A DNA stretch of 64,000 nucleotides from a virus (Duplodnaviria > Heunggongvirae > Uroviricota > Caudoviricetes), in IMG/VR virus record IMGVR_UViG_3300006052_000001; one strand, given 5' to 3'. The notes below the pieces were generated by a model, which had not been told where the DNA came from, searched no databases, and saw only the letters and a list, made by a program, of their open reading frames with translations. Positions 10,543 to 28,612 of the stretch are shown here, piece by piece (the first letter of the stretch is position 1; each line of letters opens with the position of its first letter). The position numbers were made by a program, and so were the translations under genes.

Positions 10543-10571
10543 TTGACACAGGGACGACTGTATGGTACAGT
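10543..10571 (+). promoter_or_regulatory. promoter, TTGACA-N14-TGgTACAGT
   Basis: A-rich UP-like stretch, TTGACA, 14-nt spacer, extended -10; 40 nt before the 10610 gene. Confidence 0.6.
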
Positions 10572-14340: not shown

Positions 14341-14414
14341 GCCCTTTTAGCTCAGGGGTTTAGAGCAGCTCACTTGTAATGAGCAGGTCGTGGGTTCAAA
14401 TCCTACAAGGGGCT
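14341..14414 (+). tRNA. tRNA-Thr (TGT)
   Basis: acceptor GCCCTTT/AAGGGGC, loop CTTGTAA, T-loop GGTTCAAATCC. Confidence 0.8.
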
Positions 14415-14438
14415 CTTTTCTTAAAGGAGGATAGAAAA

Positions 14439-15026
14439 ATGAGTAACGTATGGTTTACTTCAGATACGCACTTTTCGCATAAGCTTGTATCGCAAATTCG
14501 CGGATTCGTTGCTAATGATGAAGTAGATGTAAACAGACATGACGAAACCATTATCCGTAACTGGAACGGTGTAGTTAGACCTGATGATATTGTGTACCTG
14601 CTAGGAGATGTTTCGCTTAAGTCTCCAAGGGTATACGCACCACTTACCGTAAGGCTCAATGGAACTATCCATCTTGTCTATGGTAATCACGATCCCGGCT
14701 TTGGCGGAATTCGCGGTGGTGAGAAGCTAACCAGAGAGTACCTAGATGCTGGATTTGCTTCAATGCACGAATTTCTGAGGAAGAAGATCGACGGAAGAAA
14801 CGTGCTTATGTCTCACTTCCCGTACTCAGGGGATCGCGGTGATGACAGAGCTACACAGTATCGACTAAGGAACGAAGGTGTTCCTATTCTTCATGGTCAT
14901 ACTCACCAGAACGAAGTCATTTCAAGGGATAACGGTACTCTGCAAATCCATGTTGGACTGGATGCGTGGGGTTTGTTTCCCGTTAACATAGATGATATTG
15001 TGGAGATTCTTCGACAGGAGGCGTAA
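14439..15026 (+). CDS. calcineurin-like metallophosphoesterase (second copy)
   Basis: AAAGGAGG RBS; SDTHFSH, GDVS, GNHD, GHTH motifs; ORF-track start trimmed off the tRNA. Confidence 0.65.
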   Translation: MSNVWFTSDTHFSHKLVSQIRGFVANDEVDVNRHDETIIRNWNGVVRPDDIVYLLGDVSLKSPRVYAPLTVRLNGTIHLVYGNHDPGFGGIRGGEKLTREYLDAGFASMHEFLRKKIDGRNVLMSHFPYSGDRGDDRATQYRLRNEGVPILHGHTHQNEVISRDNGTLQIHVGLDAWGLFPVNIDDIVEILRQEA

Positions 15027-15789: not shown

Positions 15790-15918
15790 ATGGCATTTAA
15801 CATGGATAAAATAGCTGATTGGGATGACTGCCCGGTATGTGACGGAACTGGCAGAGTAAATGGTCAGGTTTGTGACAATTGCAACGGGCTGAGCATGATT
15901 CTTGTTCCCCGTTCCTGA
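15790..15918 (+). CDS. small zinc-ribbon protein (42 aa)
   Basis: GGAGGAAACATG; CPVCDG...CDNCNG. Confidence 0.4.
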   Translation: MAFNMDKIADWDDCPVCDGTGRVNGQVCDNCNGLSMILVPRS

Positions 15919-15990
15919 TGGAGAGTGGTCTAACGGTAGGACACATGACTTTGGATCATGCTAGTGTTGGTTCGAATCCAGCCTTTCCAG
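15919..15990 (+). tRNA. tRNA-Gln (TTG)
   Basis: acceptor TGGAGAG/CTTTCCA, loop CTTTGGA. Confidence 0.75.
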
Positions 15991-16004
15991 CGTAGGGAGT
16001 TTAT

Positions 16005-16139
16005 ATGAGTAAGCAAGATGGCTATTGTGATAACACAAGGCAGCTAAAAGACGTAGATCATATGTGCAGTTGCGATCTATCATGGCGGCACTTTGACTGG
16101 CACAAGTGCTATATCTGCGGGAGAAACTGGGGCTTTTAA
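16005..16139 (+). CDS. small Cys-rich protein (44 aa)
   Basis: GGGAG RBS; CDN...CSCD...CYICG. Confidence 0.4.
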   Translation: MSKQDGYCDNTRQLKDVDHMCSCDLSWRHFDWHKCYICGRNWGF

Positions 16140-16156
16140 AAAATTTCCTCAGCCTC

Positions 16157-16186
16157 TTGACAGACAGGCTCGGGTGTGGTAAGGTA
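16157..16186 (+). promoter_or_regulatory. promoter, TTGACA-N14-TGgTAAGGT
   Basis: conserved family; drives Y-RNA-like and tRNA-Trp/His. Confidence 0.55.
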
Positions 16187-16211
16187 GTACCAAGACGTGA
16201 GAGACAAGGAC

Positions 16212-16333
16212 TTGGCTGGTCCGAGGGTTCTCGATATGGATTGCTCATTCTGTGGTTGGCTTGGGGCGGAATTGAGCGAGGGTGGATAGCACTTTATCGG
16301 CAGGGGTAAAACTTGCTAGGTAGGGCCAGCCTT
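16212..16333 (+). ncRNA. Y RNA-like ncRNA (metazoan-type Ro-binding stem)
   Basis: starts CTTGGCTGGTCCGAGGG; GGCUGGUCCGA matches the Y RNA 5' consensus; 3' strand ACTTGCTAGGTAGGGCCAGCC pairs GGCTGG/CCAGCC; begins about 25 nt after the promoter. Confidence 0.5.
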
Positions 16334-16371
16334 CTACAAACCGGGTTTGCGGTCCTGGAAAAAACCGCTGT

Positions 16372-16443
16372 GCGGAGATAGTTTAATGGAAAAACAAGAG
16401 CCTCCAAAACTCTTAGATGTGGGTTCGAATCCTACTCGCCGTG
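16372..16443 (+). tRNA. tRNA-Trp (CCA)
   Basis: anticodon arm AGAGC-CTCCAAA-ACTCT, D-arm GTTTAATGGAAAAAC, T-loop GGTTCGAATCC; acceptor has one mismatch. Confidence 0.65.
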
Positions 16444-16518
16444 CGTGAGGATCAGTGCAGAATAGGTAGCACCAGCATTGCCGCTGGAACCTCTGATTGT
16501 AAGAAATTTCTGCGACAT

Positions 16519-16592
16519 GGTGGGTATAGCTTAATTGGAAAAGCGCAAGGTTGTGGTCCTTGTCCATCTGAGTTCGAGTCTCAGTATTCACC
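16519..16592 (+). tRNA. tRNA-His (GTG) with G-1
   Basis: acceptor GTGGGTA/TATTCAC plus extra 5' G pairing discriminator C; loop TTGTGGT. Confidence 0.75.
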
Positions 16593-16662
16593 CCAAGGCT
16601 GTAGTTAGCCTGTAAAGAGAATCGACAACCGGAAAAGTCTCATTAATCAAATAACTACACTT

Positions 16663-19595: not shown

Positions 19596-19976
19596 ATGAA
19601 AATGGCACTTACAGTTAAGACTCTATCGAACTACCCTCAGTTTGGTAACGCTCTTGGCCTGACAAACGTGGACGCATCTGCATTCACGTTCACTAATGGT
19701 GTTTCTACTACATACACAGGTTATGTAGCAGGATACCTTGATGGTGAAGGTCGCGCTAAGCTATTCTACACTGATGGTCAGTCAGTTGCCCTTCCTTCTA
19801 TGGTTAAGGCTACTCAGGTATCTCAGGTAGACGCAGCAGGTAACACAAAGACTGGTGGATACTACATCACTCTTGGTTCATGGGCATCTGCTTCTCCTGA
19901 CTCAGCATCAGCTAACTCAGAGATTTACCTAGACCAGATGGGCATGATCATCGCCGCTTCCACAGCATATGGGTGA
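19596..19976 (+). CDS. Thr/Gly-rich small protein with hydrophobic C-terminus (paralog of 21063..21686)
   Basis: 126 aa; similar N-terminus and C-terminal ...AASTAYG tail to the 21063 ORF. Confidence 0.5.
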   Translation: MKMALTVKTLSNYPQFGNALGLTNVDASAFTFTNGVSTTYTGYVAGYLDGEGRAKLFYTDGQSVALPSMVKATQVSQVDAAGNTKTGGYYITLGSWASASPDSASANSEIYLDQMGMIIAASTAYG

Positions 19977-23812: not shown

Positions 23813-23900
23813 CGAGTGTTAGATGCGAAGACACAGGGTTACTTCTATCATATGGGATAATCAAAGACACCCTAGTCGCTTTATTCACTAACACATTAGA

Positions 23901-23974
23901 CGCGGGTTAGAGAAGTTCGGTATCTCACCAGCCTCATAAGCTGACATTGCATGGGTTCAAATCCCATACCCGCT
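23901..23974 (+). tRNA. tRNA-Met/Ile2 (CAT)
   Basis: D GAGA/TCTC, loop CTCATAA, T-loop GGTTCAAATCC; 1-72 mismatch. Confidence 0.65.
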
Positions 23975-24052
23975 ACTTAGGTTAGGCCAGGAGTCAAATT
24001 GCCCGACGTAGCTAGTTCGATTCCAGCATCATACTTGGTGTATAGTAGGGTC

Positions 24053-24083
24053 TTGACAGTGTGGTATCCATTAGGATATTATG
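24053..24083 (+). promoter_or_regulatory. sigma70-like promoter TTGACA-N18-TATTAT
   Basis: canonical -35 and -10. Confidence 0.5.
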
Positions 24084-24119
24084 GACGGGACTGTTGAAAT
24101 AAACAGCGAACAGCCTAAC

Positions 24120-24227
24120 CTTTAAGTTTAAAGTTCTAGATGCGGTTATTTGAGTTTCATCAACGCCAGGGACCGACACACTCAAGTATGTGTGTCCTCT
24201 AGAACTATTGTTGGTCGGTCCCACCCT
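24120..24227 (+). ncRNA. structured RNA candidate (interleaved long-range helices)
   Basis: AGTTCTAGA(24132)/TCTAGAACT(24198); GGGACCGACA(24168)/TGGTCGGTCCC(24213); central CACAC...GTGTG hairpin; sits between the promoter and tRNA-Met. Confidence 0.3.
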
Positions 24228-24300
24228 AGTCGGTAAGCCAGAGGCATAAGGCACTAGTCTCATAAGCTAGTATTCATCGGTTCGAATCCGATACTGACGA
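24228..24300 (+). tRNA. tRNA-Met/Ile2 (CAT), second copy
   Basis: arm CTAGT-CTCATAA-GCTAG, T-arm ATCGG-TTCGAAT-CCGAT; 1-72 mismatch. Confidence 0.6.
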
Positions 24301-24445
24301 CTTGGTTTGATGTGAAGAATACGGTTACTTCTAATAAAGGGAACTGGATGTTATAGGTTCGAATCCTATCTGACCGGCTTCATCGGTCAGTAGCTCAATG
24401 GTAGAGCGCTAGTCATATAAAAAGCTCCGTTTTCGATTTTTTCTC
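24301..24445 (+). ncRNA. YrlA-type Y-RNA-like tRNA-mimic, unit 1
   Basis: box TGATGTGAAGAATACGGTTACTTC(24309-31); T-arm ATAGG-TTCGAAT-CCTAT; capped acceptor hairpin CTGACCG-gcttcat-CGGTCAG (24369-91); D-arm TA-GCTC-AATGGTA-GAGC; ends pair GGTTTGA/TCAAACC. Confidence 0.45.
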
Positions 24446-24454
24446 AAACCTATC

Positions 24455-24596
24455 ATCTTGCTAGATGTGATAGAACAAACAGTTACTTCTCATTCAAAGA
24501 GAGAGTTTGCGGTTCGAGTCCGCATGTCGGCTCCACTTGCCGATATAGCTTAATGGTAAAGCGCTAAAAACACTGTAGTTCGCTTTGTACCCTAGC
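24455..24596 (+). ncRNA. YrlA-type Y-RNA-like tRNA-mimic, unit 2
   Basis: box TAGATGTGATAGAA...GTTACTTC; anticodon-like hairpin TTCTC-ATTCAAA-GAGAG (TCA); T-arm TGCGG-TTCGAGT-CCGCA; acceptor hairpin TGTCGGC-tCCActt-GCCGATA; D-arm TA-GCTT-AATGGTA-AAGC; ends pair TTGCTAG/CTAGCAA. Confidence 0.45.
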
Positions 24597-24603
24597 AAAT
24601 AAC

Positions 24604-24721
24604 TTAATATCTGATGCGATAGAATTTGGTTACTTCTAGTGAAAATGGCAAACACAATCAACATCAAATTGATATATCTGGGTTCAAACCCCAGGAAGAT
24701 TAAAACACCAAGTTCGCATTT
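24604..24721 (+). ncRNA. Y-RNA-like repeat unit 3 (no acceptor/D module)
   Basis: box CTGATGCGATAGAATTTGGTTACTTC; T-arm-like CTGGG-TTCAAAC-CCCAG; terminal pairing GATGCGA/TCGCATT. Confidence 0.35.
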
Positions 24722-24737
24722 GTTCTCAGGTATATTT

Positions 24738-24808
24738 GGCACCTTGACCGAGAGGCTAGGTGGCGGTCTGCAAAACCGTATACAGCAGTTCAATTCTGCT
24801 AGGTGCCT
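24738..24808 (+). tRNA. tRNA-Cys (GCA)
   Basis: acceptor GGCACCT/AGGTGCC, arm GCGGT-CTGCAAA-ACCGT, T-arm AGCAG-TTCAATT-CTGCT. Confidence 0.7.
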
Positions 24809-24811
24809 CTT

Positions 24812-24932
24812 TACTAGTTGCGTCTGAGTTCGGTTACTTCAGTTCGAATCTGATATGCCCCTCCAATCATGGGGCATAGCGGTCTGGCCGCTAAACCACC
24901 TGAAAGGGTGTCCCACCCGAAGTCGTTTTATC
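24812..24932 (+). ncRNA. Y-RNA-like repeat unit 4
   Basis: partial box GGTTACTTC; T-arm-like TCAG-TTCGAAT-CTGA; acceptor hairpin ATGCCCC-tCCAatcat-GGGGCAT (24855-77); terminal pairing GAGTTCGG/CCGAAGTC. Confidence 0.35.
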
Positions 24933-24954
24933 CTCTAGTATTAAAATTAAATAG

Positions 24955-25070
24955 CTTTACCAGATGTGAAGACATACAGATACTTCGCTACCAAAATAGG
25001 CGGGCCAGGGTTCGACTCCCGGCCTAATGGGACGGTTCCCTTTCTGTGGTCGATAATGTTCTCTGGTATT
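24955..25070 (+). ncRNA. Y-RNA-like repeat unit 5 (degenerate)
   Basis: box CAGATGTGAAGACATACAGATACTTC; T-arm-like CAGGG-TTCGACT-CCCGG; terminal pairing TACCAGA/TCTGGTA. Confidence 0.3.
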
Positions 25071-25139
25071 TTTACTACCGTCAGAAGCGTAGTTATCGGA
25101 TACTTCATCGCTGGTTAACATACCTGTGCAACAATAGAC

Positions 25140-25167
25140 CGATTACGTCTTTTACTCTGACGGTTTT
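25140..25167 (+). terminator. weak terminator-like hairpin plus T-tract
   Basis: CGTC-ttttactct-GACGG then TTTTTTG; also a long-range CCGTCAGA/TCTGACGG pairing. Confidence 0.35.
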
Positions 25168-25187
25168 TTGTATTCTAGGAGGTAAGA

Positions 25188-25482: not shown

Positions 25483-27117
25483 ATGGGAAAGCTAAACAAG
25501 TACACACCAAAGACAGTTACTTCACCTATTCAGATGAGCACGGTTCCTAACGCTCATACTGCTCTAGGCGGAATTGGTTACGCACCAGCAAACGCTGAGA
25601 GCGAGCTATTCGATCTTGGTATCAACCTTTTTGCCGGTGAGGACAACTACCATGAGTCAGGACAGGCAAGAGATAATCGTTTCACCCGTCTAGTTGAGGC
25701 TGTTGCGGTTAGCAATCCTGCTTGGATTACCGGATTCCTGGGCTGGCTAAGGTCAGAGGGAAACATTCGTACTGCTTCTATTATGGGTGCGGTTGTAGCT
25801 GTACATGCCCGTCTTAACGATCCAAGGTCTGTTGAGGCAGACAAGAACAGTGCCTCTCACGGTCCCTCTTGGAACCGTAGAATCGTTGATGCTGTTTGTC
25901 AGCGTGCAGATGAGCCTGGTGAGTTTATCGCTTACTGGACACAGAGATATGGTAAGAACATTCCTATGCCAGTAAAGCGTGGTCTATCTGACGCTGCTCG
26001 CAGGCTATACAACGAGTACTCATTTATGAAGTATGACAGTGACAAGGCTGGCTGGCGTATTGGTGACGTTATTGAGTTTGTTCACCCTAAGCCAGTTGAC
26101 AACGATCAGGCAGCGCTTTTCGGTTACGCGATTTCTGCCCGTCATGGAAATGCCTTTGAGGACATGTCTAGGCTTAGCAGAATTGAGGCCAACAAGGCTC
26201 TTAGGGAAGAGTTCAAGACTAACCCTGATGTTCTGCTAAACACAGGATTTCTGAAGAAGGCCGGTTTCACCTGGGAGGATGCTCTGTCTCTGGCAGGTAC
26301 AAAGGTGGATAAGGCTAAGCTATGGGAGTCTTTGATCTTCGCAAAGGCAGTGCCTATTTTCGCGCTGATCAGGAATCTAAGGAACATGGAGCAGGCAGGA
26401 ATTAGCCGCGCTGCTATGACAGAAGTTTGCAACACTATTGCTAACCCAGAAGTGATTGCAAAGTCTCGTCTATTCCCATTCCAGATTTACGCGGCTCACA
26501 AGTACGCTCAGTCAATGCACTGGAAGTCTGCTCTTGAGGATGCTATGACATATTCAACCCTGAATGTGCCACAGCTTGACGGAGACACTTTGCTGCTTAT
26601 TGATGCTTCTGGCTCAATGTTCGGCACAAAGCTTTCCGGCAAGAGCGATCTAGAGCGCGTTGAAGCTGCTGCTGTATTTGGTGCTGCTTTCGCTGTGCGT
26701 AACCCTGATACAACAAAGGTAGTGACTTTCTCTAACGACACCAAGATCGTTCCGGTGACAAAGGGAATGTCAATGCTTGGGCTGACAGATAAGATCATGC
26801 GTACTGCCGCAACTCAGCAAAGTGGTACTGCTACTGCTGCTGCTCTTAAGGCAAGTTACACAGGACAGAAGAGAGTTATCATCGTAACTGATGAGCAGTC
26901 TTCTGGTTCTTACGGTTACTACTCAAGAGGTAGCGTTTCTGATAAGGTTCCTGACAGTACATACCTATACTCATTCGACCTTGCTGGACACCGCATTTCT
27001 GACATTCCTTCGGGAAAGAATCGCAGGCACCAGCTTGGAGGTTTGACTGACAAGTCATTCGGCATGATCCCGCTCCTAGAGCGTGGTAACAGTGCAAGAT
27101 GGCCTTGGGAAAAGTAA
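25483..27117 (+). CDS. rsr: Ro60/Rsr-like ribonucleoprotein (TROVE-like N-terminal region plus C-terminal vWA)
   Basis: 544 aa; C-terminal vWA with MIDAS LLLIDASGSMFG; the large N-terminal region fits the Ro60 TROVE+vWA architecture; follows the tRNA-like array; GGAG RBS. Confidence 0.55.
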   Translation: MGKLNKYTPKTVTSPIQMSTVPNAHTALGGIGYAPANAESELFDLGINLFAGEDNYHESGQARDNRFTRLVEAVAVSNPAWITGFLGWLRSEGNIRTASIMGAVVAVHARLNDPRSVEADKNSASHGPSWNRRIVDAVCQRADEPGEFIAYWTQRYGKNIPMPVKRGLSDAARRLYNEYSFMKYDSDKAGWRIGDVIEFVHPKPVDNDQAALFGYAISARHGNAFEDMSRLSRIEANKALREEFKTNPDVLLNTGFLKKAGFTWEDALSLAGTKVDKAKLWESLIFAKAVPIFALIRNLRNMEQAGISRAAMTEVCNTIANPEVIAKSRLFPFQIYAAHKYAQSMHWKSALEDAMTYSTLNVPQLDGDTLLLIDASGSMFGTKLSGKSDLERVEAAAVFGAAFAVRNPDTTKVVTFSNDTKIVPVTKGMSMLGLTDKIMRTAATQQSGTATAAALKASYTGQKRVIIVTDEQSSGSYGYYSRGSVSDKVPDSTYLYSFDLAGHRISDIPSGKNRRHQLGGLTDKSFGMIPLLERGNSARWPWEK

Positions 27118-28521: not shown

Positions 28522-28544
28522 CTCTGGATTGCGCCGTGCAGGGC

Positions 28545-28612
28545 ACGAACAGGTCTTGAAAACCTGGGTATGGTGAAGAGCCATAGGGGATCGTTACCTC
28601 CGCTCTCCGCGT
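28545..28612 (+). pseudogene. truncated tRNA-Ser (TGA) remnant
   Basis: arm CAGGT-CTTGAAA-ACCTG, variable arm, 3' acceptor GCTCTCC; no matching 5' acceptor or D-arm. Confidence 0.35.

Follow-up and report, generated by a model that had tools for sequence, protein, structure and literature searches.

A G-rich three-way-junction RNA gene at the head of a phage tRNA transcription unit, and its candidacy as a non-canonical ligand of the phage Ro protein

The DNA stretch analysed in this study (the window) comprises 64,000 nt of a 116-kb metagenomic phage contig (ENA: ERZ27247953). Positions 16214-16331 of its + strand constitute a separate gene for a non-coding RNA of about 118 nt, which folds as a G-rich three-way junction built from a 9-bp terminal helix (P1) and two hairpins (P2 and P3). 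The RNA begins with 11 nt that vertebrate Y RNAs also have at their 5' end, and the same phage encodes a homologue of Ro60, the protein that has its binding site on the terminal stem of Y RNAs. We tentatively favour the reading that the RNA is a non-canonical, second-class candidate ligand of the phage Ro, which would be released by tRNA processing. Among the readings considered this one leads, because chance would hardly place an exact identity of 11-12 nt on the right strand of the right helix in a genome that encodes Ro. We keep its probability somewhat under one half, because parts of the family lack the motif and the RNA does not form the defining bulged helix. The RNA is not a member of the Y_RNA (Rfam: RF00019) or YrlA (Rfam: RF02553) families, defining features of which were tested for and not found, but it may still work like a Y RNA.

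The 5' motif is carried by CTTGGCTGGTCCGAGGG, in which the 11-mer GGCTGGTCCGA occupies 16214-16224; the string GGCTGGTCCGAGGG begins at 16214, and the 3' end region, AACTTGCTAGGTAGGGCCAGCC, occupies 16310-16331. The 11-mer occurs once in the 128 kb of both strands, where shuffled sequences gave an expectation of 0.01. By itself, the 7-mer GGTCCGA is no commoner than chance predicts, with 4 copies against 4.0 expected. In the minimum free energy (MFE) fold of 16212-16333, which has a z-score of -3.7 against shuffles, GGCUGGUCC pairs with GGGCCAGCC. A sequence-only reading of this region had proposed a separate, promoter-driven, structured non-coding RNA gene in which CCAGCC at the far end pairs with GGCUGG. 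Both proposals are borne out, and the 5' and 3' ends pair with each other in this fold. The parts of the RNA are listed below, with conservation given over a sample of 12 lineages that carry it.

16214-16222, + strand: 5' strand of P1, paired with 16323-16331 in the MFE and consensus folds; together with the following G10 and A11 it makes up the 11-mer identical to the vertebrate Y RNA 5' end.
16223-16240, + strand: junction strand J1/2, GAGGGUUCUCGAUAUGGA, with (G/C)AGGG directly 3' of P1 in 12 of 12 lineages.
16241-16279, + strand: hairpin P2 of the consensus fold, with the outer stem UUGCUCA/UGAGCGA, an inner stem and a G-rich loop with GGCUUGGGG.
16280-16286, + strand: junction strand J2/3, GGGUGGA, conserved as GG(G/A)UGG and reading AGGUGG in lineage L087.
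16287-16318, + strand: hairpin P3, with the outer stem UAGCA/UGCUA, the inner stem UUUA/UAAA, a 3' bulge ACU and the loop UCGGCAGGGG.
16319-16322, + strand: junction strand J3/1, GGUA, directly 5' of the P1 3' strand in 12 of 12 lineages.
16323-16331, + strand: 3' strand of P1, placed by the MFE and consensus folds and by covariation.

The homologues were reached via proteins: Ro homologues on contigs of about 116 kb gave the syntenic loci. Lineage L049 encodes a clearly homologous RNA (nhmmer E = 2.7e-19), which likewise occupies the slot between tRNA-Gln(ttg) and tRNA-Trp. In four relatives the 10-kb flanks on either side of Ro just excluded this slot; re-anchoring on a conserved 126-aa protein (19596-19976) gave homologues in L053, L054 and L055/L057. 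A covariance model recovered a diverged copy in L061 (30.7 bits), weak syntenic copies were found in L063/L064 and L060, with the RNA at 5284-5398 in L063 and at 4487-4623 in L060, and further relatives (L087, L088 and L089) came from IMG/VR by protein anchor. The slot is shared across the lineages, which form a family of tRNA-rich phages of about 116 kb, in the order tRNA-Gln(ttg), RNA, tRNA-Trp/His. In 12 out of 12 RNA-carrying lineages a Ro gene lies 9-11 kb downstream of the RNA and on its strand. The two strands of P1 (5'/3') in these lineages are as follows.

Window, L053, L054 and L055: GGCUGGUCC / GGGCCAGCC
L049: GGCUGGUCC / GGAUCAGCC
L061: GACCAGUCC / GGACUGGUC
L087: GACCAGUCC / GGUCUGGUC
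L063 and L064: GAGACACGC / GCGUGUCUC
L088: GAGAUGCGC / GUGCGUUUC
L060 and L089: GGGAGCUGGC / GCUAGCUCCC

The nine pairs of P1 thus survive a complete turnover of sequence through compensatory changes. Pair statistics were scripted on a manual structural alignment of eight distinct sequences, which was built with the structure in mind and used because MAFFT could not align the distant homologues and disturbed the N-padded alignment. In this alignment 97% of the cells are standard pairs and both sides have changed in 22 of the 26 pairs, which indicates selection on RNA structure. None of 2000 column shuffles matched either pairing value, and sliding the partners reduced the pairing to 30-40%. 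All seven pairs of the P2 outer stem covary across lineages, as do both the outer and the inner stem of P3; the P3 outer stem reads UAGCG/CGCU, UAUGC/GCAUA or GACGC/GCGUC elsewhere, with (C/U)AGGGG in the loop. Folded alone, the 3' domain forms one long P3 hairpin in 8 of 9 lineages. We prefer this hairpin because it is the only fold of the domain that L061, L063 and L060 support. The RNAalifold fold of the 3' domain (GAUAG/CUAUC plus GCAG/UUGC), which is possible in the closest relatives only, was dropped. Stop codons occur in all six frames in seven of the eight homologues checked, and the indels are not multiples of three.

The invariant features of the family are unpaired, namely (G/C)AGGG after P1, GG(G/A)UGG between P2 and P3, and GGUA before the P1 3' strand. 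A descriptor that combines a 9-bp helix, (G/C)AGGG and GGUA on its flanks and GG(G/A)UGG in the interior was run over 1.9 Mb of fetched DNA. It returned all family members then known with 9 of 9 pairs, along with just two strays with 8 of 9; later it caught L088 and L089 and missed L087, which has AGGUGG. The RNA consists of 35-40% G, and outside the aligned stems of 40-46% G. At least four conserved G3-G4 tracts (GAGGG, UUGGGG, GGGUGG, CAGGGG, UAGGG) lie in the junction strands and in both hairpin loops, and the GGUA/GAG around P1 recalls a loop-E (bulged-G) arrangement. A G-quadruplex or a loop-E-type core in the RNA is conceivable.

The RNA gene lies immediately 3' of a promoter and is flanked by tRNA-Gln(ttg) on its 5' side and tRNA-Trp on its 3' side. 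The surrounding elements are:

16157-16185, + strand: sigma-70-type phage promoter, with TTGACA at 16157-16162, a 17-nt spacer and the extended -10 element TGgTAAGGT at 16177-16185.
16186-16213, + strand: 5' leader AGUACCAAGACGUGAGAGACAAGGACUU, of which the block AGUA(A)CCAGACAGUGAGAGACA is kept in close relatives.
16332-16371, + strand: non-conserved spacer to tRNA-Trp, 6-318 nt long across the relatives.
16372-16444, + strand: tRNA-Trp(cca), the first tRNA of the transcription unit of the candidate RNA.

The promoter TTGACA-N14-TGgTAAGGT is present as earlier described, and the distance of about 25 nt then given for the motif is in fact 28 nt, counted from the -10 hexamer (TAAGGT, 16180-16185); the spacer that starts after TTGACA ends in TGg. 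The pattern TTGACA-N13-16-TGNTANNNT has seven copies in the window, all on the + strand, against 0.18 expected, so that we regard it as a real family of phage promoters, most copies of which directly precede tRNAs. An equivalent TTGACA/extended -10 promoter is found 22-48 nt 5' of the RNA in 9 of 9 homologues examined, and also in L087 and L088. The nhmmer similarity to the homologue reaches into the leader and the promoter. Transcription is inferred to start at about 16192, and the transcription unit headed by the RNA runs on into tRNA-Trp/His/Arg/Ile, with no terminator between the RNA gene and tRNA-Trp. Promoters of the family (TTGACA-N14-TG(G)TAnnnT) are located at 10543, 13746, 16157, 20000, 23634, 27131 and 28303, all on the + strand, and split the tRNA/Ro region into transcription units of about 3 kb.

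The likeness to Y RNAs starts from the sequence GGCUGGUCCGA, which many papers state as the 5' end of human Y RNAs and which, as had been pointed out from the sequence alone, is found at 16214. The candidate RNA and the Y RNAs hY1, hY3, hY4 and hY5 (Rfam: RF00019) share these first 11 nt, and in both cases they form the 5' strand of an end-to-end terminal helix. With hY3, we take the match of the phage motif to extend to 12 nt. Y RNAs are 80-130 nt long and have a terminal stem that holds the Ro site (PMC4201824), a description with which the 118 nt and the paired ends of the candidate agree. Ro60 touches chiefly the 5' strand, and helix formation may be dispensable (PMC4201824). The core GUCCGAGGG is invariant in seven lineages, and the full 11-mer is identical in five (the window and four relatives). 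The lower part of P1 is altered by three compensatory pairs in L061 and L087 while GUCCGAGGG stays, and G6 and U7 of an unchanged 5' strand face varying 3' partners in L049, L061 and L087. The putative partner protein, which had been noted as a Ro-like gene 9 kb downstream, was located at a distance of 9.15 kb on the same strand as the RNA:

25483-27117, + strand: Ro60 homologue with TROVE and vWA domains (Pfam TROVE E = 4e-17).

Its matches in the PDB are the Ro60 of phage phiLo (9KOP/9L5Y) and Xenopus Ro60 (1YVP).

From these elements we propose the following course of events. The host-type (sigma-70-like) promoter at 16157-16185 would start a transcript that holds the RNA together with the downstream tRNAs. 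An endonuclease would take off the 5' leader; at the other end, RNase P cleavage at tRNA-Trp followed by exonucleolytic trimming to P1 would make the 3' end, so that the 5' maturation of tRNA-Trp would define the 3' boundary of the RNA. Release by tRNA processing is plausible because in clade B (L063, L064 and L088) the RNA stops just 6-7 nt before tRNA-Trp. In the clade of the window, the upper end of P1 and the adjoining bases of the first junction read GGUCCGAG, exactly the strand with which Ro60 makes contact in animal Y RNAs. The RNA would accordingly serve as a second, non-tRNA-like candidate ligand of the Ro ring, in addition to the YrlA-like modules that adjoin the Ro gene, and the G-rich body of P2 and P3 might act as an effector module that recruits or blocks another factor. 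Carried to its end, this amounts to a Y RNA, evolved or retained by the phage, in which the animal Ro-docking strand GGCUGGUCCGAG sits on a new G-rich three-way-junction body, possibly organised by G-tracts or a loop-E-like junction, and which is transcribed with tRNAs 9 kb away from Ro. We consider this full form possible, with more doubt than confidence.

Several results weigh against a Ro ligand. In metazoa the bulged C9 is described as the primary determinant for Ro60 (PMC4030889). The bulged helix that we looked for in the fold does not form, as C9 is paired with a conserved G; the helix of the candidate is a perfect 9-bp stem that leads into a three-way junction, whereas Y RNAs have the order stem, internal loop, stem. 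At E <= 10 neither the Y_RNA nor the YrlA model of Rfam matches within the 386-nt region 15990-16375, and neither matches the homologous RNAs in the three relatives scanned. The Y-type 3' strand UUGACUA is absent from the RNA. The 'CUUG-CUAG' that the sequence-only reading had taken for such a strand does not hold up, for UUGCUA pairs with UAGCA as the 3' strand of P3, and the CUUG is shared by no more than two lineages; the 3' string proposed at the time, CUUGCUAG, falls within P3. The loops of the RNA are G-rich, in contrast to the pyrimidine-rich loops of Y RNAs. The gene is 9.15 kb away from Ro, a distance that does not exceed about 2 kb for the Y RNAs known from bacteria and phages (PMC4201824, PMC12135203).

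Further points on the same side come from the relatives. The loss of GGCUGGUCCGA from homologous phages, which the sequence-only reading had named as its refutation, is not seen among close relatives, but the motif is missing from five more distant Ro-positive homologues with unrelated P1 sequences: clade B reads ..CGCUGAGGG and clade C (L060 and L089) reads ..UGGCCAGGG, so that GGUCCGA is gone while RNA and Ro are both kept. The motif is thus not needed for the core role of the RNA. The extra conservation of GUCC relative to the lower part of P1 comes down to two independent variants only, with a Fisher estimate of p ~0.12. The co-occurrence of Ro with the RNA is uninformative because every sampled relative encodes Ro, and two further Ro-encoding actinophages, Streptomyces phage LuckySocke and Arthrobacter phage Atuin, gave no copy of the RNA in their Ro/tRNA regions.

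Besides the candidate RNA, the window has a second group of possible Ro ligands, which are the canonical candidate Y RNAs of this phage:

23815-25180, + strand: array of YrlA-like, partly tRNA-like modules, directly 5' of Ro.

Sub-threshold matches to the Rfam YrlA model are located at 24312-24439 (36.8 bits) and 24505-24562. The module motifs, AGAUGUGA..GGUUACUUC on the 5' side and UAUUCUCUGG on the 3' side, recur in every relative (eight lineages inspected). The candidate RNA (16186-16340) has neither GGUUACUUC nor UAUUCUCUGG, and the generalised forms, 5' AGAUGUGA..(A/G)G(U/A)UACUUC and 3' UAUUCUC(U/A)GG, are both missing from the same interval, which again weighs against a Ro ligand. As a pattern, the modules start with C(C)AG(A/G)UG(U/C)GA-N7-9-(A/G)G(U/A)UACUUC and end with UAUUCUC(U/A)GG. 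Their middles are variable and often tRNA-like, with a T-arm (GGUUCGAAUCC) and a D-arm (UAGCUCAAUGGUAGAGC). There are 6-9 modules per array, and the arrays of the relatives lie at 8350-9990 in L049, 14600-16200 in L053, 14520-15700 in L061, 14920-16400 in L063 and 15370-16880 in L060. So many tandem Y-like modules for one Ro gene appears unusual. The 'tRNA-SeC(tca)' called by ARAGORN at 24630-24702 lies inside a Y-like module (GGTTACTTC at 24628), and the Rfam tRNA match covers just positions 4-67 of this call (35.5 bits); it is probably a tRNA-like Y module and not a suppressor or selenocysteine tRNA.

Compared with YrlA/Yrl RNAs (Rfam: RF02553; Yrl1 and Yrl2 of phiLo; PMC4201824, PMC12135203), the candidate is likewise phage-encoded in a Ro-positive genome and on the same strand as Ro. 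It also has a terminal stem followed by a CGA strand, GUCCGAG, to be set beside GNCGAAN0-1G and 'CGAA' in YrlA (PMC4201824); GUCCGAGG departs from that YrlA motif, which lies near the 5' end, by one inserted C and an A to G change. Unlike YrlA, the candidate has no tRNA-like module of T-arm and D-arm and no match to the YrlA or tRNA models, and it lies 9.15 kb upstream of Ro (9-11 kb in relatives), whereas YrlA is found within about 2 kb. Genomes of this kind as a rule encode more than one ligand for Ro: two Ro-bound RNAs are normal in bacteria, and in the one phage studied, Thermus phage phiLo, Ro60 binds two phage-encoded Y-like RNAs (PMC4201824, PMC12135203). The idea of two classes of Ro ligands in one phage is therefore not in itself new.

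The alternative that survives best is a stable small RNA independent of Ro, matured from the tRNA polycistron and acting with another phage or host partner, for which the Y match would be a clade-specific coincidence in a helix rich in GC. The purine-rich junction (GAGGG / GGGUGG / GGUA) and the G-rich loops would then bind the partner, possibly through a loop-E-like or G-tract fold. This fits the finding that the junction strands and the G-rich loops are what is invariant family-wide while P1 covaries freely across clades A, B and C, and that 35-40% G and at least four G3 tracts are kept in the nine lineages measured. The lack of any motif in common with the Ro-adjacent modules, the missing Y and YrlA matches and the 9 kb to Ro point the same way. 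However, for an exact 11-mer to fall by chance on the proper strand of the terminal helix, and in a Ro genome, is unlikely (0.01 per window for the string alone), and no other partner or target was found, the complements of the conserved loops being present in the window at chance frequency. We regard Ro independence as possible and less probable than a role as Ro ligand.

There is precedent for such RNAs. The tRNA cluster of phage T4 encodes the stable RNAs species 1 and 2 (rnaC/rnaD) of roughly 120-140 nt, which are not tRNAs, are co-transcribed with tRNAs, are presumably freed by the tRNA-processing enzymes and are not known to be linked to Ro. The candidate RNA is similarly encoded within a tRNA array and co-transcribed with tRNAs, a likeness by description only. 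To our knowledge, the non-tRNA stable RNAs of phage tRNA arrays have remained functionally unexplained since T4. Another comparison is with 5S rRNA, which is a known Ro60 substrate when misfolded and has the same size of about 120 nt with a terminal helix and two arms. The junction strands of the candidate are far longer (18, 7 and 4 nt), however, loop C and loop E sequences are missing, and the Rfam 5S_rRNA model (RF00001) gives no match to the candidate at E <= 10.

A cis-acting leader of the tRNA unit, that is a processing or stability element, a put-like antiterminator or a riboswitch-like sensor with no separate RNA, is in our view improbable. The constant position of the RNA shortly after the -10 element and 5' of tRNAs would suit such a leader, as would the conservation of the promoter-to-P1 sequence itself in close relatives, and a junction with conserved unpaired purines would be typical of ligand- or protein-sensing leaders. 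Yet no terminator and no expression platform that sequesters a Shine-Dalgarno sequence was found downstream, and the spacer to the next gene is unconserved with its range of 6-318 nt; in L061 an open reading frame (ORF) of 65 codons even intervenes between the RNA and the next gene. No such element accompanies the remaining six promoters of the family, which drive tRNAs or ORFs. Long-range antitermination seems needless because promoters recur about every 3 kb, and no riboswitch family of Rfam matches at E <= 10.

A decaying tRNA or YrlA pseudogene or a small coding region is very improbable: the location in a tRNA array, the strings GGGUUC and UGGAUAGC with their faint likeness to T-arm and D-loop sequences, and two mechanical ORFs that overlap the RNA (16106-16309 on the + strand and 15961-16248 on the - strand) could suggest it, but the compensatory changes in 22 of 26 pairs, the lack of a call by ARAGORN or the Rfam tRNA model, the stops in all six frames in seven of eight homologues, the non-triplet indels and the lack of a Pfam match in the ORF speak against it. 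Accordingly, 5S rRNA-like, T-loop/tRNA-remnant and protein-coding readings of the RNA were rejected, as no model matches and stops occur.

Searches of sequence databases gave nothing like the RNA outside the phage and the relatives reached by protein anchor. Rfam, run at gathering and at permissive thresholds on the window, the 386-nt region and three relatives, returned tRNAs and the sub-threshold YrlA matches near Ro only. A blastn search of 15900-16600 against 50,697 deposited phage genomes found tRNA-Trp only. A scan of IMG/VR with GGCTGGTCCGA-N80-110-GGCCAGCC gave 16 matches, about the chance number and nearly all in GC-rich sequence; none of the 16 is homologous, and no Ro was present in the fetched stretches. 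Three IMG/VR scans with conserved blocks gave no match because the patterns were too clade-specific, and the IMG/VR relatives came later by protein anchor. Out of the 20 stretches from a scan of JGI metagenomes with GTCCGAGGG-N40-70-GGGTGGATAGC, one is the RNA, from the same phage. Anchoring on the phosphoesterase (14379-15026) gave relatives at 34% identity or less only. One unrelated viral contig from IMG/VR (UViG_3300030099_002133, here L030; 34% GC) has a stretch of 122 nt at 12-133 on the - strand that runs from GGCUGGUCCGAA to GGCCAGCC. Its fold is multi-branched (-45.4 kcal/mol), Rfam gives no match, and the 1.5 kb of available sequence encode no Ro; it could be another Y-like RNA or chance.

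The phage contig is present in identical copies in four further ENA, Logan and JGI assemblies. The phage has a GC content of 46.5%, its proteins include a terminase, an SPP1-type portal and a tail sheath, and the window has 30 tRNA genes spread over 13.9-29 kb. Between tRNA-Gln(ttg) and the promoter lies a Cys-rich ORF of 44 codons (MSKQDGYCDNTRQLKDVDHMCSCDLSWRHFDWHKCYICGRNWGF, 16005-16139) without a Pfam match, and more small zinc-ribbon-like ORFs resembling it are dotted across the tRNA array. An element of about 88 nt (28523-28612), 3' of tRNA-Ser(gct), has 86-93% translated-level identity to relatives (tblastx). It is not called by ARAGORN and has a weak Rfam tRNA-Sec match (24.6 bits); as the relatives have a tRNA-Ser(tga) there, we take it for a probable tRNA-Ser(UGA) of atypical form whose variable arm is long.

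The closest deposited Ro genes are those of Streptomyces, Gordonia and Arthrobacter phages (36-40% identity). In the cultured actinophages LuckySocke (L085, Streptomyces) and Atuin (L086, Arthrobacter) Ro is also embedded in a large tRNA array, and in LuckySocke (114.5 kb) the terminase, portal and capsid genes are located downstream of Ro, the same as in the window. The shared arrangement of Ro, tRNA and structural genes between LuckySocke and the window hints at an actinobacterial host for the metagenomic phage family.

Judged by the missing Rfam match, the strong covariation and the fixed slot in phage tRNA arrays, the RNA represents a previously undescribed structured family; as a kind, it adds at most a variant to the stable RNAs that are associated with Ro or encoded in tRNA clusters. 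The negative results themselves show that an 11-mer identity to a famous motif is possible in a helix that drifts freely in sister clades. If the RNA binds Ro, the definition of Y RNAs would extend past the stem-loop and tRNA-like forms, and Y RNA genes would not need to adjoin Ro, so that scans of Ro neighbourhoods overlook them. The phage would then offer a compact natural system, with one Ro and two classes of RNA, for the study of how Y RNA bodies redirect Ro during infection. Should the RNA indeed be an animal-type docking strand on a new body, the Ro ring would have two mechanistically different RNA adaptors, and the recognition code of Ro60 would be shared or convergent between animals and phages.

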